Source: Candidatus Sulfomarinibacteraceae bacterium (GTDB lineage Bacteria > Acidobacteriota > Thermoanaerobaculia > Thermoanaerobaculales > Sulfomarinibacteraceae). Taken from it: a stretch of DNA of 64,000 nucleotides. The position numbers and the translations under genes were made by a program. Positions 1 to 19,084 of the stretch are shown piece by piece (positions within the stretch are counted from its first letter, which is position 1; every line of letters begins with the position of its first letter). The notes beneath the pieces are model-generated. The model did no database searches. It saw only the letters and a program-made list of their open reading frames with translations, and was not told the origin of the DNA. The stretch spans positions 1-64,000 of the forward strand of contig CAWCLO010000006.1 of NCBI GenBank assembly GCA_963796455.1. Reading direction: 5' to 3'.

Positions 1-40
1 AATCCGGTGGTCCCGGGTTCGAGTCCCGGGCGGCCCACCA
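1..40 (+). tRNA. 3' part of tRNA-Lys(TTT): anticodon 3' strand, variable loop, T arm, acceptor strand, CCA; 5' half lies outside the window
   Basis: AATCCGG-TGGTC-CCGGG-TTCGAGT-CCCGG-GCGGCCC-ACCA has a canonical T stem/loop and CCA. The anticodon loop CTTTTAA is read from the downstream copies at 7179 and 11733. Confidence 0.85.
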
Positions 41-75
41 ATTTTCGTGTCCGGCCTTCGGCCGACACGAAAATT
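40..75 (+). terminator. hairpin immediately after the tRNA
   Basis: AATTTTCGTGTC...GACACGAAAATT inverted repeat around CGGCCTTCGGCC. Confidence 0.6.
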
Positions 76-562: not shown

Positions 563-1489
563 ATGAGCCACGACTACGATCCCGGCCCTCTCCAGGCTCT
601 CGGGTTCACGGAGACCGAGGCCCTCGTGTACGGCTATCTCGTCGAGAACTCGCCGGCGACGGGGTACCGGATCAGCCACGCCATAGGGAAGCAGCCGGCC
701 AACACCTACAAGGCTCTCAGATCTCTCGAAGACAAGGGGGCGATCATCATCGAGTCGGGGAAGAGCAATCTGTGTCAGGCTGTCCCCCCCGAGGAATTCT
801 CGACAACCTGGAGAGGCGGTTCCAGCGGCATCGCCTCGAGGCCAAGCGTGAACTGGAGGCCCTCCCCTCGCCTTCCGCGTATGGCGGCATCTTCCATCTG
901 AAGAGCGTCGAACAGGTGATTCAGCGGGCCAGGGCCATGGTGGGCGAAGCGAAAGAGATCGTGCTCTGCGATCTATCTCCGGGCCCGTGCGAGCGGATGG
1001 CCGAGGTCCTGCGCCAGGCGGCCGCTTCGGGTGTGGTTGTCGCTTGCCACGTCTACGCCGAAGAGGAGATCGAGGGCGTGCACACCCTGAACATGACCAA
1101 TCGTGATCTCGCTTCGGATCGATTGGCCCGGACAGCAGATCAGCGTCGTCGTCGACAGCCTGGAGCACTTGCTGGGACTGCTCGCGATGGACATGGAGAC
1201 GGTTCACGAGGCGGTATGGAGCAGCAGCAACTTCCTGTCCTGCATGCAGCACAACAACCTAGTGGCCGAACTCATAGCCATCGGCCCCGTGTCCAGATAC
1301 TCGGGACCGGCGGACGATGTCGCCGAGTTCCTGAACAGCATCACCCTGATGCGGTTCCGCCCGCCCGGCCTCGAGGCGCTCATCCGGCGCTATGGCTCCG
1401 GCGATGCTCCGGGCCAGGGGAGACGACACGCGCTAGGGGTCGAGAACGCGGTCAATCGACCGACAATGAAAGGAAGGACCAAACAATGA
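563..1489 (+). CDS. TrmB-family transcriptional regulator (two frameshifts)
   Basis: N-terminal LQALGFTETEALVYGYL...ATGYRISHAIG...NTYKALRSLEDKGAI wHTH; continues in ORFs 772..1668 and 1103..1489. Confidence 0.75.
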
Positions 1490-1700
1490 GAAAGCCCGAA
1501 GTGCATTCTCGGCCTGCTCATCATCGTCAACGCCTGCCTGTGGGGTTTCACGATAATCATGGTCTCCCACACCCTGAAGGGAACCGGCGCCTACCAGGAG
1601 ATCCAGCACATCCTGGGTGCGCGGCTGGGATGTCGGTCGTGATCGTTGGTGGCGGCATGGCTGGATGATGACTGCGATGAAAGCGAAGGGGGGAGATCCG
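1486..1700 (+). CDS. small membrane protein (frameshifted, end approximate)
   Basis: RBS GGAAGGA and ATG overlapping the TrmB stop; hydrophobic ILGLLIIVNACLWGFTIIMVSH in a shifted frame. Confidence 0.4.
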
Positions 1701-1976
1701 GACGCAAGGTGATGATTATGGATCAGGCCGTCCGTGGGGGTCCCAGATCAGAGTATCAGGCCCCCGCAACCAGTGACCCGCCCGAATCTCGTACCACCTG
1801 GAGGTTGAGAGTCGAGGTTCCTGTAGTGCCCGCCAAAACGGAGCATGTCCGACAGCTCCATGGGTTCGAAATACTCGCACCTATTCACACATCCGTATCT
1901 CGTGGAGCACGTCCACCCATGGCGAGGGCCACACACCGCTCCCTTCGGCGTGTTGACTCGCGGCCTACGGCCGCGG

Positions 1977-3841
1977 CTGGGGTTTGGCATCGAGGCGGTT
2001 GCGTAGCGTCCTTTTGGGCGTGATTCGAGGGTAGAACCGGCAGGCTGGTCAGTTGTTTAGCTTGTGATGTCTTGACAAAAAAGACGATTGATGATATCTA
2101 GTTATTACACTAGATACAGGAGGTCATCATGGGCTATCCAACCCGCGTCCAACTGATCAAGCGCAAGGCCAGCGAACAGTGGTACATCAACTTCCCCGCT
2201 GCGCTCGCACAAGCATGTGATTTCTCCAAAGGGGAAACCGTCGAGTGGGTCGTGCGCGACAAGTACTCCCTTGTCCTCGAACGGACCGAGGCTCGCAGCA
2301 GCCCTGAGAATGAGGGGGTAAAAAAAAACTCCGCAGATCTACTGAGCGAGTTCGACAACGTGTGGAACTCCACCACAAGCCCCTTCCGGCAGGCAAGAAC
2401 CCGCGAGCGGGCATATCGGCTCGCTCTAGGGATGCTCGGGTGCCTTGGTCGACACACCATCACCGGAGTCCTCACAGCCACCGGGCGGCAGCATCTGGAC
2501 TGGACGTCAGACTACAGGTTCTTCTCTCAAGCACGATGGAAACCCGAAGAGCCTTTCGCTCCAGTGCTGCGGTCGGTGCTTGAGCTCGTCGCAGATCAGT
2601 CACCGCTGGTAGTAGCGATCGACGACACCAACCTGAGAAAAACCGGGACCAAGATCCCGGGCGTGTCGTACCGCCGTAATTGCAATTTCTTCGCCTTTCC
2701 ATCCCAATTTTGTCCGCGCGCAGCGCTTCTGTCAGGTATCTGCGATGGTGCCCGATCTGATTCTGAAGGGTGCTGCAAGAGCAGTCCCGATTCGCTTTCA
2801 CCACGCACCGACTCCTCGCAAACCTTGGCGCACGGCCTCCGACGAGCGGAGACGGGAGTACCGACGTCTGTGCCGTCAGACCAGTCTCCCTCTACAGGCT
2901 GCTTGCCTCCTGAAAGGTGTGCGAGATGAACTCCCTTCTTCGCACGCCCGGCGGCAGCTCATCGCGCTCGTCGACGGATCATTCTGCAACGGGCCATTCC
3001 TCAAGAAATCGACCCGAAAGGACGACTGTGATCGGGCGCATCCGCAAGGATGCGAAACTGTACGCATTACCCCTGGAATCAGCCCGCAGTCGGTCGCAGA
3101 AGAGTCTATGGTGAGCGTCTGCCAACACCGCGGGAGATCCATCTCGATGGGGAGCAACCCCATGGACTCCTGTCAACGCCTTTGCCGCTCGTAGAATCCA
3201 CACCTTCCACGCAAAACCGATCGGTTCCGTGTTGTAGGCACGGGCTCGGCGCTCACGCTTCTGCCTCCAGCTTGTCGCAATCAAACCTCTCCACTATCGA
3301 GCGCCTGGGAATGAACGTTTGTCGTATCGACACCCCGCATACCTGATCTGTACCGATCCGAATCTTCCTTTGCAGAAGGTCATCCAGTATTACCTCTGGC
3401 GGTGGGACATCGAGGTCAACCATCGCGACGAGAAACAGATCATCGGCGTCGGCCAGGCCCAGGTGCGTTCGCCCAAAGCTGTGGATCGTCCTCCCGGCCT
3501 TTGCGGTCGCTGTCTACGCGACTCTTCTGCTTGCCGGCATCCGAGCTCAGCGCAATGGTGGAAACGTCGATCCTCTCCCCCCACCAAAGTGGCAGCACTG
3601 CAAACCGCGCCCGAGGATCCCTACTCAGACCCTCCTACGTCACGTCCGCGGCTCAACTCTGGGGAGACGCGATTTACTCGAGGCCTCTGAGTTTCTCTAA
3701 CTTCGCGTCGCAAACAAACCATAAAACGAAACTACAGAAACGCCACCTGCCCCTTGCATCGGCTCTTCAGTATGTCGTCAATTAAACCCTCACCGTGAAT
3801 CCGGTCTGCCAACGCCACGCCTGAAAAGCGCCAAACCCCAG
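1977..3841 (+). mobile_element. IS4/IS701-like insertion sequence: small AbrB-like ORF plus frameshifted DDE transposase
   Basis: Terminal IRs CTGGGGTTTGGC (1977-1988) and GCCAAACCCCAG (3830-3841); motifs VVAIDDTNLRKTG, LVDGSFCN, YLWRWDIEVNHRDEKQ; flanking 19-20 bp direct repeat. Confidence 0.85.
2072..2116 (+). promoter_or_regulatory. IS promoter with overlapping palindromic operator
   Basis: TTGACA at 2072; TATCTAGT-N6-ACTAGATA at 2095-2116; GGAGG RBS before ATG 2129. Confidence 0.55.
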
Positions 3842-4219
3842 TCGCGGCCTTACGGCCGCGGCGTTGCGCCCCGTCGAGAGTTCTGAACCACGCCCTGGCA
3901 TGCCGAGACGGTACGCTCCCATCGCCAAACAACTTTATGAATGGTTCCCCCTGGCACCGATACGGCTATCTCCGGTCGTTTAAGATGCACATGTGAGTGT
4001 CCTCAGTTCCATAGATTGTTGCCTATTCCGTCGTGGAGGCTCGATCTACGCGACAAAGCATGAAAAACGGCAGGGGACATCTTGATAAAAACAGCCCCGG
4101 CCAGGTTTGAGTTCATTCTTGAAGGGTGGGTTGTATGAACGGCGTCCAACGCAACAGGGGAAAAGGTCAGAAGAAGGTCGCCAGGCACCTGAATCAGACG
4201 GAGGCATGAGGGAGGTCAC

Positions 4220-4905
4220 ATGAGCACGGCTCTGGAAATGTTCGCTCCGGACGTCTGGGTGAAGAAGTATCCGATTCGTTACTCCGGCTGCACCTTCCTC
4301 GCCTATAATGACCGTGATACGTCTCAAGGCGGGCCGCCTGCTGATTCACTCGCCCTGCGAGATCGACTCACAAACGAAGGCAGAGATCGCCGACCTCGGC
4401 CCCACCGCCTTCATCGTGGCGCCGGGCACCTACCACTATCTGCACGTCATCTCATGTCAGAAGGCATTCCCGGACGCGAAGACGTTTCTCTGTCCCGGCA
4501 TCGAGCGGAAGCGTCCCAAAATCCCCTTCGATGGGATTCTCGATGGCAACACACAACCCGAATGGGATGCTGAGCTCGATCAAGTCCTGGTGGAGGGCTC
4601 ACGGTTCATCTGGGAAGTCGCGTTCCTACACCGGGCGAGCAGGACTTTGATCCTCGTTGACCTGATCGAGAACATCGGCGATTCGACGCCGGGCACCAAC
4701 TCGGTATCGAGGTTCTTCTGGAAGGTCGTCTTCAGAATGTGGAACCGTCCCCGAAGGCTGGAAAGACAAGACAGCCGCCAGCCGGTCACTGTCACGTATT
4801 CTCTCGTGGGATTTCGAGCGAGTCCTCATCGCGCATGGAGAACCGATCGTCACCGATGCCAAAGAAACCCTGCGCAAGGCGTGGCAAGGTGTGTTGGATG
4901 GCTAA
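4220..4905 (+). CDS. DUF4336-like protein (frameshifted)
   Basis: MTVIRL...LLIHSP...IVAPGTYHYLH...EVAFLHRASRTLILVDL pattern; GGAGG RBS. Confidence 0.7.
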
Positions 4906-5415
4906 AAAAAGGTGCCGGGCACCAGGGTATTGACGTTCCGCATCGTTACACCCTTTTCCCCCTACTGCGGAGGTGCTCCCTCCTCTCAAATTAGCGATCG
5001 CCTCATCCTCCCGATTCAGCTTCTCCGAAAAGAGCGGGTCATTGAGCCGCCGAAGCCTTTTGGGAACGTCAATCCGTCTCCCAATGTTCTTCTTGGGATT
5101 CGGATCCCCCTACCCCTTCGACCCAGAAGAATCCTCCATCATCACATTGAAATGACATCGAGACTCCGCAATCTCGAGGATCTGAAAGGTGGCCTCTAGT
5201 GATGACCGAGAAAACCACTCTATTCTCTCCGAGGTGGTTTGCGAGACAACAAGGGCACCCTGCCGAATCGAAACCCGGGATGGCCACACTCCCCGGGCAA
5301 CTGACCTGATCTGCCTGGACTCAGATTCTCTAGCCCCTCGATCTGTGTCGGGCGTCAATGTGAGGCAGGACGAGCACTGACAAAACATCAATACCCAGGT
5401 GCCTGGCACCTTTTT
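4906..5415. repeat. ~510-bp element bounded by 32-bp inverted repeats (MITE/REPIN-like)
   Basis: AAAAAGGTGCCGGGCACCAGGGTATTGACGTT (4906-4937) versus the reverse complement of 5384-5415: 29/32 match. Confidence 0.7.
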
Positions 5416-5621
5416 GGCACCTTTTGGCACTTTTTGGCAGGGCCTTCTCGACGATCGGACGGCGAAGCTCCAGGTGTCCCTCTCGCTCAGACTGTACGAT
5501 CCTTCCACCGGGAGGGCGCCGACGCCGGACCGGGGATCCTTTCATCCCCAGGGTTGCCTGGGGATTGGGGGTGCGATACTCTGGCCTGAGCAAAATCCTT
5601 AAGATTAGAGGAGAGAGAACG

Positions 5622-6950
5622 ATGGGATTACATTCTCTCTGGAAGACGGCGTCGATTGGCTGCCTCGGTCTATCTATGGTTCTGCTGCCTGGAGCAGCTT
5701 TGGCCCAGTGGGTTCAGGCGGGCGCTGACATCGACGGCGAGGCAAGCTTGGACGAATCGGGCTGGTCCGTGTCCCTCTCCGCAGACGGCTCTCGCGTGGC
5801 CATCGGGGCACCCAAGAACGATGGCAATGGCAGTGACTCCGGTCATGTCCGCGTCTATCAATGGATCGACCCGAACTGGGTACAGCTCGGCACCGACATC
5901 AATGGCGACGAGCCGGAGTTTTTCTGTGGCACCTCCGTGTCCATTTCCGCGGACGGTTCCCGCGTGGCCGTCGGGACGCCCGAAGCCGATGGCAACGGCA
6001 GTGACTCCGGTCATGTCCGCGTCTACGAGTGGTTCGACTGGACTTCAACCTGGCTGCTGGTGGGCTCTGACATCGAAGGCGAGGCAGAATGGGACAAATC
6101 GGGCTGGTCCGTGTCCCTTTCCGCAGACGGTTCACGCGTGGCCATCGGGGCGCCCTTAAACAATGGCAACGGCAGTGACTCCGGTCATGTCCGCGTCTAT
6201 CAATGGGTCGAGCCGAACTGGGTACAGCTCGGCAACGACATCGATGGCGATGGTTCTTTCATTCGCAGTGGCTCCTCCGTGTCCATTTCCGCAGACGGCT
6301 CTCGCGTGGCCGTCGGGGCGCCAGACGCCGATGGCAACGGCATTGACTCCGGTCATGTCCGCGTCTACGAGTGGTTCGACTGGACTTCAACCTGGCTGAC
6401 CGTGGGTTCTGAAATCGGTGGCGAAGGTGAGCACGACCTGTCCGGGTTTTCCGTGTCCCTTTCCGCAGACGGGTCACTCGTGGCCATCGGGTCGCCCGGA
6501 AGCAGTGCCGGCGGCCCCGCGGCGGGTCGAGTTCGTATCTTTGAGTACGACAGTCCGCATTGGTACCAGCGAGGTCCACACATCGTCGGCGAGACTTCGT
6601 TCGACAACTCCGGGAGGTCCGTGTCCCTTTCTGAAGACGGCTCATTCGTTGCCATCGGGGCGAACAACAACAATGGCGGCGGTAGCTTCAGGGGCCATGT
6701 TCGTGTTTTTGAGTGGGCCAACTCCGATTGGGTACAGTTCGGACAAGACATCGACGGTGAGGCAGATGCCGATTGGTCCGGGTGGTCTGTGTCCCTTTCT
6801 GCAGACGGTTCCCGCGTGGCCGTCGGGGCGCCCTACAACCATGACATCGGCAATCGGTCCGGTCATGTCCGTGTGTATTTCAGTATGCTGCTCTTTGCCG
6901 ACGGATTCGAGTCGGGCGACACCACGGCGTGGTCAATGACGGTGCCATAG
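5622..6950 (+). CDS. secreted FG-GAP-like beta-propeller protein with C-terminal FADGFESG motif
   Basis: Signal peptide; seven G-x-SVS-L/I-S-ADGS-x-VA-I/V-G repeats; ends LLFADGFESGDTTAWS. Confidence 0.85.
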   Translation: MGLHSLWKTASIGCLGLSMVLLPGAALAQWVQAGADIDGEASLDESGWSVSLSADGSRVAIGAPKNDGNGSDSGHVRVYQWIDPNWVQLGTDINGDEPEFFCGTSVSISADGSRVAVGTPEADGNGSDSGHVRVYEWFDWTSTWLLVGSDIEGEAEWDKSGWSVSLSADGSRVAIGAPLNNGNGSDSGHVRVYQWVEPNWVQLGNDIDGDGSFIRSGSSVSISADGSRVAVGAPDADGNGIDSGHVRVYEWFDWTSTWLTVGSEIGGEGEHDLSGFSVSLSADGSLVAIGSPGSSAGGPAAGRVRIFEYDSPHWYQRGPHIVGETSFDNSGRSVSLSEDGSFVAIGANNNNGGGSFRGHVRVFEWANSDWVQFGQDIDGEADADWSGWSVSLSADGSRVAVGAPYNHDIGNRSGHVRVYFSMLLFADGFESGDTTAWSMTVP

Positions 6951-7021
6951 ATCCCGGGACAGGTCAGCCTCCCTTGACACTTACATACGAAGCTGATTAA
7001 CCATCGGGAGAGGGTCATCCA

Positions 7022-7478
7022 TGGGACATCCATGGGACACTTGCCCTCAACTCCGTCCAACAAGCACCAACTATCCCCATCGAAGCTGCGGCACCCAACG
7101 TCCCTGTTTTGGGTTGGTTACCTTGTTGTGGGGTGTTGAGGATGACTGACGTATATTGTTGGAAATAGGCGTGTTACAGGACTTTTAATCCGGTGGTCCC
7201 GGGTTGCTTCGCCCTCCGGGATCGGCGTCCCGCCGAGATGAGCGGGTGGCCCTACCGGGCCCTGCTGCGGCTTTTCAGACGACGATGGGTCAGAGCTCCC
7301 TCGTCGCTTCGCTCCTCGGGACGCCGTTCGCCTCGCGCAGGGCACACCTGCTGGGCTCACGGCGCCTCTTCGACCGCCCTGGCGAGGGCCACTAGCCGCT
7401 CCCTTCGGCGTGGTCGAGTCCCGGGCGGCCCACCAGGCTTCGTTCGAAACTGCGTTTCGAACTACGCCCTGGCAAGCC
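7022..7478 (+). mobile_element. att-like junction: TGGGACA(C/T) arm doublet plus tRNA-Lys 3' half split by a 209-bp insert, then a palindrome
   Basis: Arms at 7022 and 7033; GGACTTTTAATCCGGTGGTCCCGGGTT at 7179-7205; CGAGTCCCGGGCGGCCCACCA at 7415-7435, identical to positions 20-40. Confidence 0.85.
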
Positions 7479-7777
7479 GAACCACTGCATAGCCGATTTG
7501 GCAAAATCGTTAAATCGTTGGCCCTGGCACCCAACATGGAATTCGCTTTTTGGAACTGTCAGGCGACGGAGTGCAACCTCCCCCGTTGCCTCTCAGTCTC
7601 CCTCTGCGCCCTCGACCGTCTCAGCAATCGTCCGCCCGTGTTCCCGTGCGACCCGCAGAAGCCCAGCTCATCTCAGAGTCGGCGGGAGCGGTGCGGCCTA
7701 CAAGCTCGCCAAGCACCTTGTTGAGGATTTCCACGCGCACACGGAGTCCAGCGACGGCGGGACCGGGCTCGCTCAGG

Positions 7778-8334
7778 CTATCCCTCAGCCTCCTCCACGA
7801 TCTCCATTGCTGGAGGTGCTAGCGTGAAGCCGAGCTGCTGCATAATCGCCCCCTCGTTGTAGTACATCCATTCCTCGGAAAACCTGCCGTCAATAACATG
7901 GATGACGGATGCACCGCTGATCTGGATTGGCATTCCGGTGGGGGGCAGCTCGCCGACTGCGCCAGCGTCGGTGCCGGTCACCGTCCAGCGAAGCACGATC
8001 CTGTCGCCCGCCACGATGTACCTCGTCAAACCTCACGTGGAAATCGGGGAACTGGGTGCGGAATGCCATCACGGCCTCCCCGAATCCCACCGACCCGTAC
8101 GATGTCCTCTGAGATGTCAACCACATGACGGACGTAGCCGGGGCCCACAAGGTCGTCGATCAGATCCAGATCCCCCTCGTTCCAGATCGTGCGGGCGCGT
8201 TCAGCGAGAGCGGTCATAGCCTCCGTGGCCGAAGAATCAACCGCCTGCTGCTGGCAGCAGCCCGACGCGAGGCCCAGCATCACTAGGACGAACGCCGGAC
8301 CGGCAAACCTCAACACAACTCTCGATACTCTCAT
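7778..8334 (-). CDS. SnoaL-like ester cyclase family protein, possible lipoprotein (frameshifted)
   Basis: LASGC lipobox-like; IWNEGDLDLIDD, FRTQFPDFH, GDRIVLRWTVTGT, PPTG, SEEWMYYN spread over three frames. Confidence 0.75.
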
Positions 8335-8473
8335 TCTTCCAATCCCCCTTTGTCTCCGCTCAGGCGAGAAACTCTTCCATCCGTTGTTCGATCCGCACCA
8401 CAAATATTTCCAATACATACAACGTGTGGCCGGGCCTTCTGTCTGTCAACTCTTTCGCACGGATCGGTGAGCA

Positions 8474-8493
8474 ATAGGAATTTCCTTTCGTTC
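8474..8493 (-). mobile_element. orphan IS91-type oriIS end
   Basis: 19/20 identical to 37100-37119, which lies downstream of the IS91 transposase; minus strand reads GGAAATTCCTAT. Confidence 0.65.
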
Positions 8494-8775
8494 GGCTCCA
8501 AGCTATAACGACGTTCGGGCGCGTTCGCGGGCGAGTTGTTCGGGGTCGGTGGACATGGGGCGAGGGTGGCAGGGGGCGCCTCAGCGGGGAGCTTCGCTCT
8601 GGGCGATTTTCGGCCTCCTTCTGTGCCGTTTTCCGGGGGAACGAAAAAGGGGCTTAACGCCCATTCCCTCCGATTACACCGAATCGGTGGTGGTCTTTCT
8701 TGCGTCCCGATCGCCTAACGGTCATCCACCGCTTCGCGGCTTGGATCGACGCCGTGCCTGTAAAGTGAGCAACCC

Positions 8776-9156
8776 TTACTCGGGAGAACCAGGACTCATG
8801 AACAGGTACGCGACACCCAAACCCAACAGCACGTAGATTCCAACAGCCGACCAACCGACTGCGCTCATCACACCTGATAGCGTTCCCTGCACCGAGACAA
8901 TCACGCCGATGATGTTGGAGATCAACAACGCGAGAATGATCGCTCGCCGTGCTCTGCCATCCGTAACATCTCTGGCGAGCCAACACACCAAGCCAATCCC
9001 AATAAGTGCTGCCCCGAAATACCGTCCCATGAGTATTTCGCCCGGACCCTGTGTGACTCCGTAGATCGACAACACGAGCTGCGGGAAGAGTTCAAAGCAA
9101 ATCCCGTAAGCTAGAGGGACGGTGGCGTGAATGATAAATATGGTTTTGAATTTCAT
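8776..9156 (-). CDS. small four-helix membrane protein
   Basis: Intact hydrophobic ORF starting MKFKTIFIIHA. Confidence 0.7.
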   Translation of the reverse strand: MKFKTIFIIHATVPLAYGICFELFPQLVLSIYGVTQGPGEILMGRYFGAALIGIGLVCWLARDVTDGRARRAIILALLISNIIGVIVSVQGTLSGVMSAVGWSAVGIYVLLGLGVAYLFMSPGSPE

Positions 9157-9773
9157 GAGGTCACCCCTTGTGGACCAATTGATAGGATCTTCCGAATACG
9201 ACGACATTCATTCGGTCAGCGAACCAATCTTAAGTACTCGATAGGCACCACCCCCTTTAGTTGGGCACACCTCAACCATCCCAACCATCGACAGGCTGAC
9301 GTGCCACCGGCTAACGGCGGGATACCCGCCATCGTCATGTTGTTCTCCGTTGTCTCTACCTAGGTAAGGTGGTGCCTAAGCGGACGGAATGCAACAACTG
9401 AATCCAGATATCCTCGTCTGGTTTCAATTAATTAGGAACGATTATTACGCCCTGGCAAGCGGGTTTTTCGTGAGGTTGTGATACCTGGCACGGTTTCTCG
9501 GAGGGTGACATCCCGGAGATCTGGACCCATATTGTCTTTGAAGTCACTCAAACAATGGACGCGTCAGGCTGGCCACGCCGAGGTCTCGCCGGATTCGATT
9601 ATCGATGTGGGCCGGTCCAAGATGAACCTATTTGAGGTGCACCAACAGGGCGCCACGGTAGCCTCGACTCTCAACTTCGATAAGGCACAGCTTTTCGGGC
9701 TTGGGTCAGGAACTTTCCGTCCCTATGGGGCGGGGTACAAATACAGGGGGCGGGCCAAGGGAGGATATCTGGA

Positions 9774-11405
9774 ATGAATACGCAAAGCGTTTTCAGATTA
9801 GTGGCGGTTGGAGTGATGACCATGACTCCGATGAGTCTGGCAGCAGAGGATGGCTGGACTGAAAAGACCGACATGCCAACAGCGAGATTCGGTCTTGCCA
9901 CCAGCGTTGTGGATGGCAGGGTTTACGCCATTGGCGGTGGAGTAGGTATGGGAGTCATGGTTCGCAACGTACAGGAATACGATCCGGCAACGGATAGCTG
10001 GGTGGAAAAGGCCAATATGCCTGCCGCCACATGTTGGCATTCCACCAGCGCAGTGGATGGCAGGATCTATGCCATCGGGGGCTGGGCGCCTGGTGGCGTC
10101 GGTATTGACACAGTGGTGGAATATGACCCAGCGACAGATACCTGGAGGGCAAGGGCTGAGATGCCGACACCAAGGAAATTCCTGTCCACCAGCGCAGTGA
10201 ACGGCAAGATCTACGCTATCGGGGGGTCAGAACTCTAAATGCTCTTGGCACAGTCGAAGAGTACGACCCAACTACAAACACCTGGACAACGAAAACCGAT
10301 ATGCCGACGCCGAGAATACTCATGTCCACCAGCGTGGTCGACGGGATCATCTATGCCATCGGAGGCGCCCTAGAGCCGAATACACAGAGGACTCGACAGT
10401 GGAGGCTTACGATCCGGCGACGGACACCTGGACGACAAAGGCGCCGATGCCGACGGCAAGGGCCTTTTTCTCCACCAGTGTGGTGAACGGGAAGATCTAC
10501 GCCATCGGAGGTTGCACAGGAAACTATGACGTTCTTACTTCCAACACCGTGGAGGTATTCGATCCGGTGACGAACACTTGGACGGTGACGGACGATATGC
10601 CAACCCCAAGAGCGGCATTGGCCACCAGCGCGGTCAACGGCAGAATCTACGCCATCGGGGGCGATCTACAGTTGCGCTTTTTTGGAACAATCCTTCTTCA
10701 ATAGTGGAAGAACTGACCGTTGCCCCGCCCGAACTGCCCTTCGTCTACTGGCTGGAGGTGGCCGCCAATCTGCCGGGCAGCTACGGGAGCCAGTGGGTCA
10801 CCGACCTGGTCCTGTTCAACGAGGCGGAGACGGCCGCCACCGTCTCCCTCGTTCTCCACGCTGAGGACGGCCAGCACACCGCGCCCGCGTCGGTCGTCGC
10901 CGGCGCCCAGGGGGTGTTCGAAAACGTCGTCGGCAGCCTCCAACACCAGGGGAAGGGCCCGCTCGAGGTACGCTCCAGCCTCTCGCTGCGGGCCGCCGCG
11001 CGGACCTACAACCTGGCGACCGAGGGCACATTCGGCCAGGGCTTCGCGCTCTACACCACGGATCAGGGCTTGGCCGCCGGCGACACGACGTGGTTGCTCG
11101 AACTGCGCCAGGAGCAGGACCGGTTCCGGACCAACATCGCCGTCGCCAACACAGGCGACGCCGACGCATCGGTGCGGATCCACCTCATGGCGACTGACGG
11201 AAGCGAAATCCACGCCTACACCCTCGACCTCGAGCCGGGCGAGCTGATTCAGGACCTCGAGCCCTTCGCGAGACGCGCCGGCCGTCCCGATCTGGGGTGG
11301 GGGCTGGCCCGGGCGGAGGTGATAACCGGTTCAGGGGTGCTGGTGTCCGCGTCGGTCATCGACTCGCGCACCAACGACGCGACCACTGTGCCGATGCAGC
11401 GGTAG
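9774..11405 (+). CDS. secreted Kelch-repeat protein with C-terminal lineage-typical domain (frameshifted)
   Basis: Six MPT-x-R...S-x-V-x-G-x-IYAIGG repeats; C-terminal AANLPGSYGSQWVTDL...SVIDSRTNDATT domain. Confidence 0.8.
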
Positions 11406-11500
11406 TCATCGGAACTCTGATGCTGGTGCCAGGGGGCAGTGGGAGGAGCGCCTACCCGACCCTTCAAGAACCGGTCTCCGATTAGAGCAAGTATCTGGGT

Positions 11501-12157
11501 GTGACCCAGGCCCTGAAAGCTCTACCACCTGAAGGTTGAGAGTCGCGCCTTGTTCTCCGTGGTCTCCGCCTATCGTGGGGCACTGGTGGGACACTCGCGC
11601 TCAATCCCGCCCAACAAACGCCAATACACCCCATCAAAGCAGTGACACACAAGGTCCTCTTTTGGGGCCGTTTACCTTGTTGTGTAGTGTTGAAGGTGAT
11701 TGACACATGTTGTTGATAATAAGCTATTTACAGGACTTTTAATCCGGTGGTCCCGGGTTTACGTCGTCCCCCTCCCTGCCACCCTCACGACGCGTCCCGC
11801 CGAGATGAGCGGGTGGCCCTACCGGGCCCTGCTGCGGCTTTGCAGACGACGATGGGTCAGAGCTCCCTCGTCGCTTCGCTCCTCGGGACGCCGTTCGCCT
11901 CGCGCAGGACACGCCTGCTGGGCTCACGGCGCCTCTTCGACCCCCATGGCGAGGGCCACACACCGCTCCCTTCGGCGTGTTGGCTCGCGGCTTTCGGCCG
12001 CGGCGTTGCACCGCCGTCAGCGAGTGGCCGATGGTCGGCTTCCCATCCCCCACCCGTCCAACCTCGGCCACACGTCGCTGCCGTCGGCGGAATCGAGTCC
12101 TAGGCGGCCCACCAGGCTTCGTTCAAAACTGCGTTTTGAACCACGCCCGGGCAAGCC
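11501..12157 (+). mobile_element. att-like junction: boundary motif, arm doublet, tRNA-Lys 3' half split by a 334-bp insert, then a palindrome
   Basis: TACCACCTGAAGGTTGAGAGT at 11523; arms at 11576 and 11587; tRNA parts at 11733-11759 and 12094-12114. Confidence 0.85.
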
Positions 12158-12446
12158 CACCATAGCCTGGAACGCTGTTTTGAACGGAGCCTGCTCGTGA
12201 GGGCGTAGCGCGGAGCGCGAAGCCCCATCACGGCGTAGCGCAACGAAGCCGGACATCCTCCTCCACGCCACACAAGGCCTCGAACTACGCCCGGGTAAGC
12301 CAAGTCACGGCGTCTTGTGACGGCGTAGCCTCTGGGCGAAGCCGCAAGCCGGAGGCGACTTGTGCCGGCGAAGTCGAAGACGAAGCCGCAAGCCGGATTC
12401 CGAAGCCACCCGCCAACTAAGTCTCAGACTACGCCTGGGTAATGCC
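12115..12446. repeat. cluster of REP-like GGCGTAG...CGAAGCC / CTTCG...CTACGCC palindromic units
   Basis: Units near 12115, 12201, 12232, 12283, 12321, 12367 and 12428; related units at 82, 3885, 7436, 9446, 16007-16100 and 19610-19757. Confidence 0.75.
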
Positions 12447-12579
12447 TGCTCTCAACATCCAAAATGGGCCACAAGATCACGAGTGTGTGTTTTGATCATT
12501 CAACGCCCAACTTCCTAAGGTTCTAATCCAGCGAAGCCGGAACCATAGTCACCGAGGGTGGTGAGCTACGATCGTCGAC

Positions 12580-14091
12580 ATGTCACAGCTAAAGGAACGG
12601 TATCGGCGGGTTGTTGTGGGAGAGGTGTCGTGTTTTGACCGGGTGGTCATCAACGGGACGCTGACGGAGATCTGCCACACGGCGGCGGTGGCACAGTACC
12701 TGATTTCTCGCAAGGAGCGATTACTGGACATGCCGCGGGTATTTGAGCGAATGAAGACCGAGATCGTGGCGAACGCGAAGGCAGTTGCCACCGCCCACGG
12801 GCTCAAGATCGAGTACATCCCTCGGAAGAGCTTTCGGAAGGAAGAACGGATTCGAGAGATCCTCGCTGAGCGTGGTGACGACCCTGGGTTGGTGCACATC
12901 TTTTCTGCGACCGAGCGATTGAACACCTTTCGAGCCGGGGCCCGCAAGGACACAGGCCGACCGTTCATCGCACCGCGACAGGGACAGTGCCTGCACTATT
13001 ACTTCTACTTCATTGATCCAGATTTTGGGCTTTGTTACCTGCGGGTGCCGACATGGGCGCCTTTTCGTTTGCAGTTCTACTTCAACGGTCACAACTGGCT
13101 GGCTCGTCGGCTTTCAGAGGAAGGCATCGATTTCACACTGATCGACAACGCTTTCGTGAATATCGCAGATTTCGACAGAGCACAGGAGATCGCCGACGAA
13201 TTCCCCGTAAGGGCCCTGCACACGAGGCTGGACGATCTGGCACGCCTGCTGTGCCCGGTAATCCGCTACTTTCACTCCGGCTACTACTGGAGCTTGATGC
13301 AGGTGGAGTATGCCACCGACCTGATCTTCACCTCGGCCGAGGCGCTGGCTCCGCTGTATGACCATTTGGTGCGTACCGCGGCGCATGCGGTCAAGGTAGA
13401 TCAGATCGCGACCTTTCTTGGACGCCGTCTCGACGGGCGTTTCGCCGGCGAGATCGGCAACCGTTTTCACACGCGCATCCAAGGCACGAGCATCAGACAC
13501 CATATGGGCCGTGCCTCAATCAAGATGTATGACAAGATTGGCCGGGTCTTGCGCATCGAGACCACCGTCAACGATGTCACCATTTTCAAGTACCACCGCA
13601 TGGTGGAACACCGCGACGGGACGCAGTCTATGAAGACCGCACCCGTGAAGAAGAACATCTACAGCCTTGCGATCATGGCGAAGCTCATGGCGGCGGCCAA
13701 CCGTCGCTATCTGGACTTCCTGGCCGCTCTCGACGACCCGTCCGATGGAGCCCGGAAGCTGCCGAAGGTCGCGGAGTCGGTGCGGAGGAAAGGACGCAGC
13801 CACCGCGGCTTCAACCTGTTTCAGGCAGAGGACCTCGCGGTCTTCCTCGCCATCGTCCGCGGTGAGTTTGCCATCACAGGCTTCCGTAACCTCGATCTTC
13901 GGCGCCATCTCGGAAAGAACAGCCGCCAGGTGTCCCGAATCCTCAAAAGGCTGCGGCTCCACGGCCTCATCAAGATCGTCGGGAAACGGTACAAGTACTA
14001 CCTCACCCGCCTCGGTCGATCGGTCGTCTCCTGTGCGCTTCAACTCCGCGAAAACCTCGTCATCCCCACACTTGCCGCGCCGATCAGCTGA
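12580..14091 (+). CDS. putative transposase of an unclassified IS-like family with C-terminal winged HTH
   Basis: Intact 503-aa ORF; motifs SCFDRVVINGTL, HYYFYFIDPDFGLCYLRVPTWAPF, QVEYATD, KMYDK...LRIETT, GFRNLDLR...RLRLHGLI; no DDE pattern evident. Confidence 0.6.
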   Translation: MSQLKERYRRVVVGEVSCFDRVVINGTLTEICHTAAVAQYLISRKERLLDMPRVFERMKTEIVANAKAVATAHGLKIEYIPRKSFRKEERIREILAERGDDPGLVHIFSATERLNTFRAGARKDTGRPFIAPRQGQCLHYYFYFIDPDFGLCYLRVPTWAPFRLQFYFNGHNWLARRLSEEGIDFTLIDNAFVNIADFDRAQEIADEFPVRALHTRLDDLARLLCPVIRYFHSGYYWSLMQVEYATDLIFTSAEALAPLYDHLVRTAAHAVKVDQIATFLGRRLDGRFAGEIGNRFHTRIQGTSIRHHMGRASIKMYDKIGRVLRIETTVNDVTIFKYHRMVEHRDGTQSMKTAPVKKNIYSLAIMAKLMAAANRRYLDFLAALDDPSDGARKLPKVAESVRRKGRSHRGFNLFQAEDLAVFLAIVRGEFAITGFRNLDLRRHLGKNSRQVSRILKRLRLHGLIKIVGKRYKYYLTRLGRSVVSCALQLRENLVIPTLAAPIS

Positions 14092-14331
14092 CGCACCGCC
14101 AGGATTTGTCTCCATCTTGCGGACAATCTCACGGGTAAGGAGCTAAAGCCCGGCACCGAGACCTAAAGCCCGGCAGACCGAGACCGAGACTTTCGGCTGC
14201 TCCAGCTCACCCTTCGTATGAATCCACTGGTGCGAGCAGCCATCCTCGTGCAGGTCACCTGGTGTCGATGGATCCCACAACTGGTATTTGCCGATGTCGA
14301 TACTGATTTGGCGACGGTCGTGATGGATGCG

Positions 14332-14913
14332 CTATCCGCTCGCCTCAGCTCGGGCCGTCGCGAGGAGTTCGGACAGGCCGAGACGGCGAGCCCACTCATC
14401 CAGATACAGTGCGTCGAGCCTGTCTTCTTGGGCTTTGAGGACTCCAAGCAGGTCTTTCCATTGGCGATCAGAGACGCCGCCGCCTTCTTTGAACCACTGA
14501 AGCTTGCGAAGGACGATGTCCTCGGCTGATTTGACCGCGGCCCACCTGGGAGGGTCGACGACGATCTGCTCTCTGATGCTGCGCTGCAACTCGACACGAT
14601 CGAACTGCTGGTCTCCTGCGACGAAAAAGTCCACCTTGAAGCCGCTCGTCAGGTGGATGGCGTTGAAGCTGGTTTTTTGCGAAACCGCGTCTGCTACGAC
14701 CGACTCGTCCACGTAGAAATCTCCGGCCAGAGAAGCAGCGAGTTGGCGTCCTGCCTCTGGCGACAGATCGACGACGATGTCCACGTCGCCGGTCTGGCGG
14801 GGCACGCCGTGGATGGTGCTGGCAAAGGACCCGCCGAGGTGGTATGGAATCGATAGGCCATCGAGGATGTCGATCACCTGGACCACGACGGCCAGCACCG
14901 AGGTCACGCTCAT
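14332..14913 (-). CDS. nucleotidyltransferase-fold protein (putative TA component)
   Basis: YHLGGSFASTIHGVPRQTGDVDIVV, KVDFF, SAEDIVLRKLQW. Confidence 0.7.
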   Translation of the reverse strand: MSVTSVLAVVVQVIDILDGLSIPYHLGGSFASTIHGVPRQTGDVDIVVDLSPEAGRQLAASLAGDFYVDESVVADAVSQKTSFNAIHLTSGFKVDFFVAGDQQFDRVELQRSIREQIVVDPPRWAAVKSAEDIVLRKLQWFKEGGGVSDRQWKDLLGVLKAQEDRLDALYLDEWARRLGLSELLATARAEASG

Positions 14914-15158
14914 GACTTGAGGGGGCCGAAGGCGGCCGCAGCCAGGTCTTCTCCCAGGATCAGATCCATGAGAAGGCGTTCGATGGTCTCTCGACATGCG
15001 TCGGGGTTGCGGCTGCGCAGTCCGGCACGGGCCAGATCTCTGGCTGCGAGACAGGCATCATCGAGCAGCTCCAACCGACGCCAGGCAGGCATGTCGCGGA
15101 AGATCCCGAGCATCACGGCCTCCGCGTCTGCAGACGTGTCCCGTGAGAGAGTTCCCAT
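14910..15158 (-). CDS. small partner protein (putative antitoxin) coupled to the nucleotidyltransferase
   Basis: 82 aa, DTSADAEAVMLGIFRDMPAWRRLELL; ATGA overlap with the next gene. Confidence 0.65.
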   Translation of the reverse strand: MGTLSRDTSADAEAVMLGIFRDMPAWRRLELLDDACLAARDLARAGLRSRNPDACRETIERLLMDLILGEDLAAAAFGPLKS

Positions 15159-15346
15159 GGTTTAAGGATACAAGAACGCTCTGCACGGTGCCACGGAAGT
15201 GTCTTCATCAATGGGTATGACGTTCATGATCGGCCTCAATGTGGAGAAGTCGATCATGACGGCGGGCTTCATGTCGCCTGGGCACATAATCAAGAGCAAC
15301 AAGGGCGCCTTCTAATGGGTGGCACCCTTCCTGACCGGGCCTCGAT

Positions 15347-15380
15347 TACCTTGACAAGGTATACCTTGATTAGGTATATT
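15347..15380 (+). promoter_or_regulatory. higBA promoter with tandem palindromic operators
   Basis: TTGACA at 15351 and TATATT at 15375; TACCTTGACAAGGTA (15347-15361) and TACCTTGATTAGGTA (15362-15376). Confidence 0.8.
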
Positions 15381-15388
15381 GATTTCGG

Positions 15389-15679
15389 ATGGCAATCAAG
15401 AGCTTCGCCGGCCGGGCAATCGAGAGGTTCTTTTTCGAAGGAGTTGCTCCAAAACGTGCCGGTTGGGCCGGGGTCGTGAAAGCCGCCGCCAGAAAGCTGG
15501 ACATGCTGGATTACGCGAATCAGCTGAAGGATCTGGCCTCTCCTCCGGGAAACCGGCTGGAGGCTCTGAAAGGAGACCTCTCGGGTTTTCACAGTATCCG
15601 GATAAACGATCAGTGGAGAGTGATCTTCAGGTGGACTGATTCGGGTCCGACCGATGTAGACATTCATGATTATCATTGA
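15389..15679 (+). CDS. higB: HigB (RelE/ParE-type) toxin
   Basis: IKSF...PPGNRLEALKGDLSGFHSIRINDQWRVIFRW...DYH. Confidence 0.92.
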   Translation: MAIKSFAGRAIERFFFEGVAPKRAGWAGVVKAAARKLDMLDYANQLKDLASPPGNRLEALKGDLSGFHSIRINDQWRVIFRWTDSGPTDVDIHDYH

Positions 15680-15686
15680 GGAAAGC

Positions 15687-15977
15687 ATGAAGAGACGACG
15701 CGAACCAACGACACCGGGCGAAATTCTCCGCGATGAGTTTCTCGTGCCGCTGGGAATGACTCAGAAAGAACTGGCTGATCACATCGGATGCGATGTGAAG
15801 GTCATCAATCGAATTGTCAACGGACGAACCTCGGTGTCGGCCGAGATGGCCCTGAGGCTAGGTGCCACCTTCAGGACTTCACCCGAGTTCTGGCTGAATG
15901 CTCAGAAGGCCGTGGATCTGTTCCGCGCCGGACACCGGGTCCCCAACCTGCCGGCGCCCGTGCTCAAGGCGAGCTGA
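15687..15977 (+). CDS. higA: HigA antitoxin
   Basis: PTTPGEILRDEFLVPLGMTQ...SAEMALRL...PEFWLNAQ. Confidence 0.92.
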   Translation: MKRRREPTTPGEILRDEFLVPLGMTQKELADHIGCDVKVINRIVNGRTSVSAEMALRLGATFRTSPEFWLNAQKAVDLFRAGHRVPNLPAPVLKAS

Positions 15978-16184
15978 TTGTAGAGCCAAGTCCCGCCGTC
16001 TAGTGACGGCGTAGCTGCGAAGCAGAAGAAGAGGGCATACGCCTCCACGGCGATACCTAACCTCGAACTACGCCCGGGCAAGCCTGTCACGGCGAAGCCC
16101 AGCGCCGGAACGCTCCCACAATGCGACAATACGGAACGTGTGACTTCTCATAGCGGCACGAAAACACAAAGCGGAGGTCGGTTC

Positions 16185-16993
16185 GTGCATCATCATCCAC
16201 CCCCAAAGGCGTCTCCCACCGCCTTCTTCGTGCTGACCTTCGTCCTATCCGTGCCTTTCTACATTCTCAATGCACTCGCGTATCTCAATGTCCTTTTCGA
16301 GCCCAAAATGGGCGCCCTTTATGTTTCCCTCTTCACCCTCACGCCGATCACGTCCGCCTCGATCCTGGCATTCCGAAGGAACAGATGGGATGGCGTGAAA
16401 AGACTCCTCGGGAGAATCTTTGATTTCAGGAGGATCGGGAGCAAGAAATGGTACGTACCCATCCTTCTCTTGGTGCCTCTGGTCTTTCTGCTTTCCCTGG
16501 GGGTGATGGTCTTGTCGGGGGAGCCGATTCCTGCTGGGTTGATCCCGGTCGTGGCCCTGCCGGCGGTATTCCTCTTCTTCTTCATCCTGGCGGCCGGGGA
16601 AGAGGTCGGCTGGATGGGATACGCCTTCGGGCCAATGCAGGCGAAGGGCGGCGCCCTCAAGGCCTCCCTGGTGCTGGGTGTGATTTGGGCGGTCTGGCAC
16701 GTTCCTTTTTTGTCTTCATGATGCCCGATCCGGTGATCCTCCTCGCGCAGCTCTTCACGCTGGTGGGGACCCGGGTCCTGATGGCCTGGATCTTCAACAA
16801 CACGGGGCAGAGCGTTTTCGCGGCCATCTTGTTCCATGCCGCCGACAATGCAGCGCTCGTGACCATGCCTGAGATCCAGGCAATCTCCCCCTGGGGCGCC
16901 GTCGTGCACAGCACATTTATCCTGGTCGCCGCCGGCGTCGTTGCGCTGCTGTGGGGGCCCCGGACCTTGGCTCGATTCAGGTTCGGGGACTGA
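16185..16993 (+). CDS. CPBP/CAAX (Abi) intramembrane metalloprotease (frameshift near 16710)
   Basis: GEEVGWMGY, WAVWHVP, FNNTGQSVFAAILFHA. Confidence 0.85.
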
Positions 16994-17146
16994 GTTTGTG
17001 CGATTCGATGGTTTCCACCCAGAACGACCTCGGCAACACCTCCGAGAAGGGGCGGCATGACAGCAAGTGATGCCGCGGGACCCGGCGCCGGCCCCGAGCT
17101 GGTACGAGCTTCGAGGTATTGCGCTTTTTGACTGAGAGGAGTCGAC

Positions 17147-17638
17147 ATGACAGAAAAGGCCCAGTGCGCGCTTGCTGACGGCTTTCGTCTTTGGGAGAAG
17201 ATCTACGCTCAGGGGTCGTTCATCGGGATGGGAATTTTCGCCGTTGTCGGCATCGCGCTCGTTGATTGGCGATGGGTTCTGCCCTATCTCGTGATTTACG
17301 CGTACGGCATCTTGGGAGTCGTCATGAGGCACCTCAATTGTCCGAGATGTCCGCATCTCCATGTTTACAACGACTGCCTGCAATTCCCCACACCAATCAC
17401 GAAATGGCTGGTGAAAGAGCAAAAGACGACGCCATTCAGCACTATGGAGAAGCTCCTCTTCTTCTCGATCTTTCTTCTCATACCCACGTATCCCATCTAC
17501 TGGCTGGTGGCAAGCCCATTCACGTTGGTCGGGTTCCTGTCGTTGGCCGCTGTATGGTACGGCGGGCAGTTCTTCTATTTCTGCAAGAGATGCCGAGTCG
17601 AGCAGTGTCCCGTCAATCGGGCTGTGTTCATTCACTGA
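17147..17638 (+). CDS. membrane protein with Cys clusters
   Basis: GAGGAG RBS; TM segments; CPRCPH and CKRCRVEQCP. Confidence 0.7.
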   Translation: MTEKAQCALADGFRLWEKIYAQGSFIGMGIFAVVGIALVDWRWVLPYLVIYAYGILGVVMRHLNCPRCPHLHVYNDCLQFPTPITKWLVKEQKTTPFSTMEKLLFFSIFLLIPTYPIYWLVASPFTLVGFLSLAAVWYGGQFFYFCKRCRVEQCPVNRAVFIH

Positions 17639-17687
17639 CGCATCAAGACCCTCAGCGGTGCCACCCTTCGCATTCACACACTGCCGG

Positions 17688-17850
17688 TGACCCAGGCCCT
17701 ATTTTCTGTACCACCTGAAGGTTGAGAGTTTCACCTCCGGTGCCATCCTGGCGATGGGCCTCGACAGGTCTTTCCGGTATCGAGTTTTGTGGGACACTCT
17801 TGGGACACTTGCGCTCAACATCGGCCCAAAACCGACAACGAAAACCAACA
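17688..17850 (+). mobile_element. truncated att-like junction (boundary motif plus arm doublet, tRNA part absent)
   Basis: GTGACCCAGGCCCT...TACCACCTGAAGGTTGAGAGT (17709) and TGGGACAC at 17790 and 17801 followed by TTGCGCTCAAC, as at 7033 and 11587. Confidence 0.7.
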
Positions 17851-17980
17851 GAAGGAGGTCTCCCGAAGCCCCCATGGCGCGCGTGGCGCGGGAGGTCGCG
17901 CGGGTCCCGGTAGAGAAACCGGCCCGCGCGGGCGAACCGGAATTCTCCCGTTGATCAGCGACCCGTGGAGCCGTCAGGCC

Positions 17981-19084
17981 CTACTCTGCGCGATCGTCGT
18001 AGGTCGGAAAGTCGGTGTAGCCTTTGGCGCCGTTGCCGCCCGAGTACCAGGTGCTCATATCGAAGTCTTCGTTGAGGGGCCAGCCGTTTGCGAAGCGGGC
18101 CGGAAGGTCGGGGTTGTTGATGAACGGTCGGCCGAAGGCAATCAGATCGGCAGCGCCTCGACCGACCGCCTCCTCGGCGGTCTCGACATCGTAACCGCAA
18201 CTGCCGATAAGGGTTCCGTGGTAGACCTCGCGGGCGTGTTCGAGAGTGACCGGCTCACCGAGTTCATGGAACCCGAATGCCAGTCCGTCAACCAGATGGA
18301 GGTAGGCCAGGCCCATGGCCTGCAACTGTTTTGCCGTGTAGGTGAAGGTCTCGCGATAGTCCGGTGAGCCCATGTCGTTGAATGACCCGTTGGGGGAGAG
18401 GCGCACGCCCACCCGGTCCGACGACCAGGCTTTGCTCGCCGCTTCGAGGACCTCTCCGAGGAGCCGAAAACGCTTCTCGATACTGCCTCCATAGCGGTCG
18501 GTGCGCCGATTGGTCTTGGACTCGAGGAACTGGTTGAGCAGGTAGCCGTTGGCGGCGTGGACCTCGACGCCGTCGAAGCCTGCGGTTCGTGCGAGTTCTG
18601 TAGCTCGCGCGAAGTCGGCGACGATGGCGGGGATCTCATCGGGCTCCAGGGCCCTGGGTGTCTCGTAGGGCTTCGGGCCGTCGGGCGTGTGCACGTGATC
18701 TCCTTCGAGCTTGACCGCTGAGGGGGCCACCGCCGGCTGACCGCCGTGAAACGCGCTGTGCGACGCCCGGCCGCAGTGCCAGAGCTGCAGGAAAATCGGC
18801 GTGCCCGTCGCGTGAACGGCGTCGGTCACCAGCTTCCAGCCCTCGGCCTGGGCCTCGGTGTAGATCCCGGGGGAATCGACCCAACCGATTCCCTGCTCGG
18901 AGACGACCGTCGCCTCGGTGATCAGGAGTCCGGCCCCGGCGCGTTGGACGTAGTACTCCGCCATGAGTTCGCTGGGAACCCTGCCTTCCCCTGCCCTTGC
19001 GCGGGTCATCGGCGCGAGCACGATGCGATTCTTCAGGGTCAGGCCGCTCATTTCGAACGAGGTGAAGAGCTGCTTTTCGGTCAT
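17981..19084 (-). CDS. alkene reductase (old yellow enzyme, NemA/XenB-like)
   Basis: LKNRIVLAPMTRAR, QLWHCGR, GFDGVEVHAANGYLLNQFL, FGRPFINNPDLP. Confidence 0.93.
   Translation of the reverse strand: MTEKQLFTSFEMSGLTLKNRIVLAPMTRARAGEGRVPSELMAEYYVQRAGAGLLITEATVVSEQGIGWVDSPGIYTEAQAEGWKLVTDAVHATGTPIFLQLWHCGRASHSAFHGGQPAVAPSAVKLEGDHVHTPDGPKPYETPRALEPDEIPAIVADFARATELARTAGFDGVEVHAANGYLLNQFLESKTNRRTDRYGGSIEKRFRLLGEVLEAASKAWSSDRVGVRLSPNGSFNDMGSPDYRETFTYTAKQLQAMGLAYLHLVDGLAFGFHELGEPVTLEHAREVYHGTLIGSCGYDVETAEEAVGRGAADLIAFGRPFINNPDLPARFANGWPLNEDFDMSTWYSGGNGAKGYTDFPTYDDRAE

Follow-up and report, generated by a model that had tools for sequence, protein, structure and literature searches.

We have identified a family of gene-less, folded DNA repeats, here called dumbbell units, which split the T-loops of displaced tRNA-Lys(UUU) fragments in the 64,000-nt stretch of DNA analysed (the window). 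What was observed comprises the unit itself, a conserved fold, precise ends, a range of host sites, tandem stacking, and one site in both empty and filled states. The inserts are likely to be mobile as single-stranded DNA, probably cut and rejoined in trans at TT|C or TT|G, and to survive in spare tRNA pieces. The family explains T-loop splitting of such pieces and gives a lineage-wide repeat defined ends, a fold and a target rule; since these are defined, a handful of candidate enzymes and short oligonucleotides would be enough to test it. Where units intervene, software that locates att sites will overlook the ends of islands or put them in the wrong place.

A sequence-only reading of the window had claimed that two tRNA-derived att copies are each interrupted in the T-loop. 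This was confirmed, the insertion point being the T55/C56 boundary in both 3' fragments. All features given here lie on the forward strand. Copy 1 comprises a presumed att arm with short direct repeats (7022-7173), a left half running from the anticodon loop to T55 (7174-7205), a 209-nt insert (7206-7414) and a right half from C56 to the 3' end (7415-7435). Copy 2 comprises a second arm diverged from the first (11576-11727), a left half (11728-11759), a 334-nt insert (11760-12093) and a right half (12094-12114). Window positions 1-40 hold a tRNA-Lys(UUU) 3' part with an intact T-loop, a whole gene or a fragment cut by the contig start; minus their inserts, copy 1 matches these 40 nt with 0 mismatches and copy 2 with 2. 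A fourth split junction, now decayed, retains a left half and, after it, the opening bases of a unit (19580-19615). Trailer repeats of a separate family occupy 12115-12450; they are also found 3' of copy 1 (7436-7478) and, in relatives, 5' of a small GIY-YIG gene.

The nearly identical 188-bp core reported for the two inserts is indeed better conserved (180/188 identical) than the upstream arm (109/152 ungapped; 77% by another comparison). The core is not the repeat unit, which is 100-125 nt long and gene-less; it is one unit bearing a 109-nt loop expansion. Each unit folds into a short hairpin and a long rod, and its two ends come together on a single helix. The copy 1 insert is a single unit (7206-7414), made up of a short hairpin (7206-7226), a rod 5' arm extending to 7254, the loop expansion (7255-7363) and a rod 3' arm (7364-7414). 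Copy 2 holds two units: the first (11760-11981) differs from copy 1 in its short hairpin but not in its rod or loop expansion, and the second (11983-12093) is of the plain type, with a DNA fold z of about -4. A single extra base (11982) lies between them. The third partial copy noted near 1916 proved genuine and decayed. It consists of a rod 3' arm, 35/35 identical to that of copy 2, and a second unit's short hairpin (1915-1976); a frameshifted IS701-like element (1977-3841) lies within this hairpin and has duplicated about 19 nt of it, after which the copy resumes (3842-3875) and is truncated. The loop expansion is missing from two sequencing runs. In four sediment runs contigs link 7204 to 7414, joins that may represent intact tRNA genes because their short side spans just 18-22 bases, and that are given no weight here.

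It is quite conceivable, if short of an even chance, that both window inserts derive from one old insertion that was copied with its att fragment, a history compatible with mobility of the unit. The flanks are 91-100% alike (32/32 for the left att halves, 59/65 for the 65 nt starting at the right junction), and the two copies have in common a loop expansion that is whole in no other searched genome. Against a single insertion, the short hairpins of copies 1 and 2 are wholly different, the 3' arm of copy 1 is closer to a copy in the relative G006 (35/35) than to copy 2 (31/35), and copy 2 gained its second unit from a different lineage.

Covariation in the fold is strong. Double changes occur in 23 of 35 pairs among 22 hand-picked units, compared with 6-13 for slid partners, and in 30 of 34 pairs among 85 distinct model-fitted matches; covariation with internal positions extends to the final two paired bases of the unit. 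With two fixed G-T positions set aside, the counts are 34 G-T and 39 A-C appositions, a balance that gives the fold a DNA-like symmetry. Together with the tandem stacking of units, the covariation bears out the earlier proposal of a non-coding, structured element accumulating stepwise. That account had also seen neither terminal inverted repeats nor a target duplication, and we agree on both: no terminal inverted repeats were detected in the inserts, and at 97 of 110 family sites the right flank and the element start have no prefix in common.

Insertion sites follow a short rule. T was found at -2 in 105/110 sites, T at -1 in 107/110, C or G at +1 in 106/110 and G at -3 in 62/110, a tally that leans towards TT and C because these flanks were included in training the model. 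The empty site falls in a hairpin loop in 23 of 74 cases, as against 88/1500 and 149/1818 (6-8%) in controls, and some copies have the left junction shifted by one base. Host sites comprise T-loops, REP loops, attC loops and simple repeats. Further tRNA hosts are the T-loops of tRNA-Leu and tRNA-Ala and, in tRNA-Pro, a different TT|C site; one integron carries units in four attC sites, inside attC rather than replacing it. An indirect sign of movement comes from G006, which has three near-identical IS110 copies: the flanking REP lacks a unit at two of them and carries one at TT|C at the third, without loss or duplication of sequence. A split-tRNA pattern search of 119 genomes returned 13 matches, 11 of them tRNA-Lys fragments (10 with a recognisable unit) and two chance matches in coding DNA, and no whole tRNA gene split by a unit. 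By manual reading, tRNA-linked units fall at no fewer than three points of the tree; its automatic labels misassigned about ten rows, and the change count and p-value obtained with them carry no weight here. The suggestion that the element targets the T-loop thus stands in part: TT|C or TT|G is needed and hairpin loops are favoured, but most copies in relatives lie outside tRNA pieces.

The repeat was found in 60 of 77 genomes of the host bacterial family and in 0 of 149 sampled genomes outside it. In a phylum sample only 1 of 151 genomes matched, namely the window's own, and weak relatives may have been missed there because 24 candidates were scored per genome. Plasmid and phage collections gave no match. 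Genus g4 carries 11-46 units per genome, and unit counts in individual relatives reach 40 (G018), 32 (G001) and 42 (G077). No account of the unit was found in the main texts of the largely open-access literature searched.

If units are mobile as proposed, a folded single strand would place both ends side by side and could be released as a small closed dumbbell, which would then enter exposed hairpin loops; later spread may be as a passenger of the host repeat or att fragment. Sub-lineages keep to one type of host repeat, and so many copies may be passengers rather than new insertions. T-loop copies likely persist only where the tRNA piece is spare. Among candidate enzymes, a Y1 HUH transposase working in trans is our tentative preference. 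HUH enzymes are described, in the passages cited, as cutting and rejoining single strands without target duplication (PMC8266576, PMC6006769); Y1 HUH genes occur in 71 of 77 host-family genomes. Counting against this choice, a unit lies within 1.5 kb of a Y1 gene at just 2 of 36 Y1 loci (in L119 it is inside the Y1 gene's own REP), Y1 genes also occur in unit-free genomes, neither circles nor excision events were seen, and the one-base variation at the left junction is not predicted by clean strand transfer. IS200/IS605 elements show a replication-strand bias according to the cited part of PMC3971601, whereas units show none (25 versus 24, with 12 unclear). A gene-bearing parent with both unit ends was not found in 312 loci totalling 897 kb. 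Ranked next, and considered unlikely, is a small GIY-YIG nuclease of the Ssn type together with host repair; enzymes of other kinds are entertained as seriously, and as tentatively, as the Y1 transposase.

Several other candidates were rejected. Reverse transcriptase genes were found neither in the window's own genome nor in four of five unit-rich relatives, and 0 of 10 such loci hold a unit; an inverted pair of units in G002 flanked ordinary genes; and elsewhere in the own genome, one left half and one right half flanked no transposase. A tyrosine recombinase search of the own assembly yielded no island integrase, just two XerC/D-like genes and one fragment. Locking of modules in place would be a possible side effect of the split att copies, but the missing island integrase speaks against relying on it in this assembly.

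A variant of the repeat lies 3' of intact tRNA genes, seen here behind tRNA-Asp, -Pro, -Leu and -Lys. Its short arm consists of the tRNA's own 3' end and an antisense copy; the repeat begins at C56 and contains the rod, in many cases together with an antisense copy of 21 nt. One doubtful extension of the main proposal is that gene-less DNA dumbbells enter TT|C loops and have the short arm rebuilt from the target's downstream sequence, gene-bearing versions having a tiny GIY-YIG nuclease within this arm. Because the incoming arm would be a tRNA 3' end plus terminator, an intact tRNA gene would be restored without an integrase. If true, islands could come to lie at tRNA genes with no integrase involved, and there would be a testable candidate origin for tRNA-linked repeats, to which no known function in tRNA operons is ascribed in the cited part of PMC8144298.

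A less probable mechanism is homing by nick and repair, in which an Ssn-like GIY-YIG nuclease nicks empty hairpin loops and the unit is copied by recombination from a filled copy of that repeat or tRNA fragment. An 82-aa GIY-YIG gene is located behind tRNA-Ala or tmRNA, and at 8 of 21 loci, as judged by eye, a unit or stub comes after its stop codon (2 of them reach E<0.001 with the model). Ssn enzymes are described as cutting single strands near hairpins (PMC11893778, in the portion cited), and homing would account both for the even use of the two strands and for lineages keeping to their own host repeats. It would leave unexplained the jumps among unrelated hosts and the covariation at the ends. 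Moreover, the gene occurs in only 17 of 119 genomes, is missing from this genome and is not in G018 or G001 despite their many units, and the trailer repeats upstream of it are its likelier substrate.

Joining of the unit as a gene-less, folded single-stranded cassette into short genomic sites by an integron-type tyrosine recombinase is very unlikely. The unit start does pair with sequence just 5' of the rod, a cassette-like layout, and integron cassettes are reported in the cited portion of one study to enter GWT sites without strand bias (10.1101/2022.09.11.507474). However, an integron integrase scored above cut-off in just 25 of 77 genomes and 0 of 8 in the unit-rich genus g4, the G expected at -3 is limited to the 62 sites given above, attC core motifs are missing from the unit, and in integrons the unit sits within attC.

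Least probable of all, and not borne out where the sequence-only reading had raised it, is that the unit functions as a structured RNA or as an intron spliced from the T-loop: the strong covariation, the shared tRNA sense and the two conserved top-strand G-T positions fit it, but Rfam 15 gave no match for the inserts (window 1-20000) or for four loci, there is no G-U excess beyond the two fixed positions, units show no orientation to neighbouring genes (four classes of 18, 16, 14 and 13, from crude ORF calls), the hosts are tRNA fragments rather than whole genes, and to our knowledge the unit is too short to be any known self-splicing intron.

REP/REPIN sequences with RAYT (TnpA-REP) resemble the unit in being gene-less, extragenic and multi-copy, with compensatory hairpin changes and no target duplication, and are thought to be mobile in trans as single strands (PMC3116915, PMC8266576, PMC6006769). 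In contrast to them, the unit has in alignments no GTAG foot at its hairpins, is not a REP doublet, has a junction of TT|C or TT|G rather than C|T, rarely flanks a RAYT gene (the 2 of 36 Y1 loci above) and sits inside the REPs of other families. IS200/IS605 elements, with IS608 as the mechanistic model, likewise have two near-end hairpins and insert 3' of a short T-rich site without duplication (PMC8266576; PMC3971601), whereas the unit has no tnpA parent in the 312 loci searched, its ends pair by plain antiparallel pairing and its 49 assignable copies are evenly divided between replication strands. The ssr9 module of ISPpu9 (IS110 family) is also small and gene-less; it forms circles and uses another element's enzyme, and its parent element targets REPs (PMC12288879). 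The unit is unlinked to an IS110 gene and shows no derivation from the ends or guide RNA of such an element: units were present at 2 of 13 IS110 loci, the locus examined has it in the REP beside the element, and G077 carries 42 units without any PF01548 match. The displaced tRNA fragments found at tyrosine-integrase islands (Islander) similarly are 3' pieces from the anticodon loop bounding tandem gene modules (PMC4383910), but those in the window are secondarily split, in an assembly without an island integrase. E. coli tRNA-linked repeats stand in tandem behind tRNA genes and terminate with a copy of the tRNA 3' end (PMC8144298); here the repeat differs in its C56 start, its rod and its frequent antisense copy, there is no sequence match to Rfam, and the window copies sit in displaced fragments. 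With Ssn/SRM systems the point of comparison is the unit or stub behind the small GIY-YIG gene (8/21 loci), and from MITEs of the type with terminal inverted repeats the unit is set apart by lacking both these and a target duplication. Dumbbell repeats are non-autonomous hairpin repeats with new features.

The genome of this bacterium measures 5.0 Mb at 60% GC, and the window is the beginning of its contig CAWCLO010000006.1. The first 20 kb are a series of unrelated gene modules (TrmB-like regulator, DUF4336, FG-GAP, SnoaL, Kelch, HigBA) bounded by tRNA-Lys(UUU) 3' fragments that start at the anticodon loop, a layout left behind by integrase islands according to PMC4383910. Recombinases in the assembly comprise only two XerC/D-like genes and one fragment. 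Two of the tRNA fragments were found to be split between T55 and C56 of the T-loop, by 209 nt (7206-7414, copy 1) and 334 nt (11760-12093, copy 2), as the sequence-only reading had described. With the halves rejoined, copy 1 has 0 mismatches and copy 2 has 2 mismatches to window positions 1-40. The same reading was borne out in that the inserts share a nearly identical core (180/188), that this core is more conserved than the att arm upstream of each fragment (109/152), and that a third partial copy is genuine, resuming beyond an IS701-like element. A fourth, decayed split junction lies at 19580-19615, and contig C10 has one more split fragment, interrupted by 102 nt, behind an intact tRNA-Lys gene. 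The different conservation of arm and insert needs no special cause, since the two lie on opposite sides of a crossover that we infer in the anticodon loop. Both window inserts may descend from one old insertion, although their short hairpins differ and copy 1 has a 3' arm nearer to that of a copy in genome G006 than to that of copy 2.

Other features of the window were recorded. A motif of ~20 nt precedes the arm or junction in three modules (1792-1815, 11523-11545 and 17710-17730) and may mark module ends. A third att arm (17790-17839) has no tRNA fragment downstream. A 503-aa ORF at 12580-14091 appears transposase-like by eye and has no Pfam or NCBIfam match, and short palindromic arms at 4905-4925 and 5395-5440 resemble those around 330-350-aa Y1 genes elsewhere in the same genome.

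The 188-bp core is shared by both inserts but is not the true monomer. Relatives differ in which third of the 334-nt insert they match (36 of 61 genomes), so the insert is composite. Their loci reveal a unit of 100-125 nt, made up first of a 7-bp hairpin that has a bulged T close to the start, and then of a long rod that has a 3-nt bulge and a loop rich in pyrimidines. In this fold, both unit ends come together on one helix with the final T facing a conserved G, resembling a nicked dumbbell. Copy 1 is a single unit with its rod loop enlarged by 109 nt, while copy 2 consists of the same enlarged unit with a different short hairpin, followed by a second unit of the plain kind. A relative of the loop expansion (L005; G028:C230:1588-1668) occurs in a non-tRNA setting flanked by direct repeats and probably belongs to another repeat family. 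The claim of a structured element was upheld by covariation, as both sides had changed in 23 of 35 pairs in a model-free alignment of 22 hand-picked units, versus 6-13 for slid partners. The corresponding figure for 85 distinct matches, 30 of 34 pairs, comes from a model-fitted set biased towards structure.

A structured non-coding RNA, as also proposed, found no support. Rfam contains no match to the unit, G-T and A-C appositions are equally frequent outside two fixed positions (34 and 39), and units show no orientation relative to flanking genes. Together, these sequence-level results favor a constraint acting on folded DNA.

The repeat family is real and is confined to one bacterial family. 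Using a covariance model, the unit was detected in 60 of 77 Sulfomarinibacteraceae genomes, with scored counts reaching at least 48 units in a genome, and a sample of 149 genomes from beyond this family yielded no match; the literature searched held no description of it. All seven matches in the genome under study adjoin tRNA genes or fragments, whereas in relatives the majority of copies examined lie elsewhere. On all large contigs of G000 (e.g., C1:256404-256498), dozens of copies of a ~95-nt repeat are miscalled as tRNA-Asp by ARAGORN; in G006 this repeat starts a larger composite repeat with a unit inside, in nine near-identical copies.

A tally of 110 unique sites has T at the two positions just before the unit in 105 and 107 of them, and C or G at the first position beyond it in 106; the model behind this tally was trained with, and hence favors, these flanking bases. 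The site is written here as TT/C or TT/G (TT/S for either), the slash marking the junction with the unit. The modeled empty site is a hairpin loop in 23 of 74 sites (from 90 of 94 matches), versus 88/1500 random TT/S sites and 149/1818 in flanks. Among the hosts are REP-like repeats (one of which overlaps Acido-Lenti-1 matches), four attC sites in one integron, simple repeats, and T-loops of tRNA Lys, Leu and Ala fragments. The cleanest empty/filled case is in G006, where three near-identical IS110 copies have the same terminal REP; two of these REPs are empty, and the third contains a single unit at TT/C. At an orthologous RAYT locus, a unit lies within a REP in G018 and is absent in G015. 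The integron at L307 (G014:C1:634000-644500) carries the unit in attC sites of four cassettes, which suggests that filled sites were copied into new cassettes.

The T-loop serves as a target because TT/C is always present there in a loop. A pattern for split tRNA-Lys T-loops, run against 119 genomes, matched 13 times and in 7 of them. Two were chance hits; the other 11 are fragments with the D-arm missing upstream, 10 of them with a recognizable unit. Fragments without a split occur as well, at least two of them. The insert is probably tolerated only in spare tRNA pieces. Recombination of a split junction into an intact gene would break that gene, as the sequence-only reading held, and this could dead-end a module; no sign of selection for such an effect was seen. 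Downstream of 5 of 30 intact tRNA-Lys genes is a copy of the 3' end starting at C56, and in every case a unit precedes it. By automatic labels, units end in TT in 1 of 12 cases when a tRNA right half follows versus 59 of 73 others. On visual reading, tRNA-linked units occupy at least three places in the tree, one group covering three tRNA types.

A variant found downstream of intact tRNA-Asp and tRNA-Pro genes starts at C56, runs through the 3' end and terminator, and continues as an antisense copy of the tRNA 3' end leading into the rod. Of 14 Asp and 11 Pro loci chosen for likeness to this module, 5 and 1, respectively, have a full antisense match (21/21); the copy tracks the local tRNA variant and ends at C56. 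Modeled as a circle, the module would fold into the same dumbbell, whose short arm is then formed by the tRNA end, and its entry into an intact tRNA gene at TT/C is predicted to restore the gene. Three loci behind tRNA-Asp (L252, L253, L259) have a symmetric 8-by-8 pyrimidine-rich internal loop, both sides nearly the same in sequence.

With regard to candidate enzymes, Y1 HUH genes are near universal in the family (71/77 genomes), with just 2 of 36 Y1 loci adjoining a unit. A small GIY-YIG gene behind tRNA-Ala has a unit or stub following it in 8 of 21 loci and is present in only 17 of 119 genomes; at these loci (L383-L403) the gene encodes 82 aa, and most of them combine an upstream tRNA-Ala or tmRNA with trailer repeats. 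Integron integrase is absent from a unit-rich genus, reverse transcriptase from most of the unit-rich genomes in which it was sought, and IS110 from genome G077, and no gene is shared between left and right unit halves in 312 loci.

Taken together, the unit is very probably a mobile folded repeat, and movement by single-strand cutting and rejoining is a likely reading. It works like REPs, REPINs and IS200/IS605 derivatives, yet tests of membership speak against placing it in any of these groups. IS200/IS605 elements show replication-strand bias according to PMC3971601, whereas the units do not (25 vs 24). The tRNA-linked repeats of E. coli, as described in PMC8144298, have the same build as the tRNA-Asp/-Pro variant.
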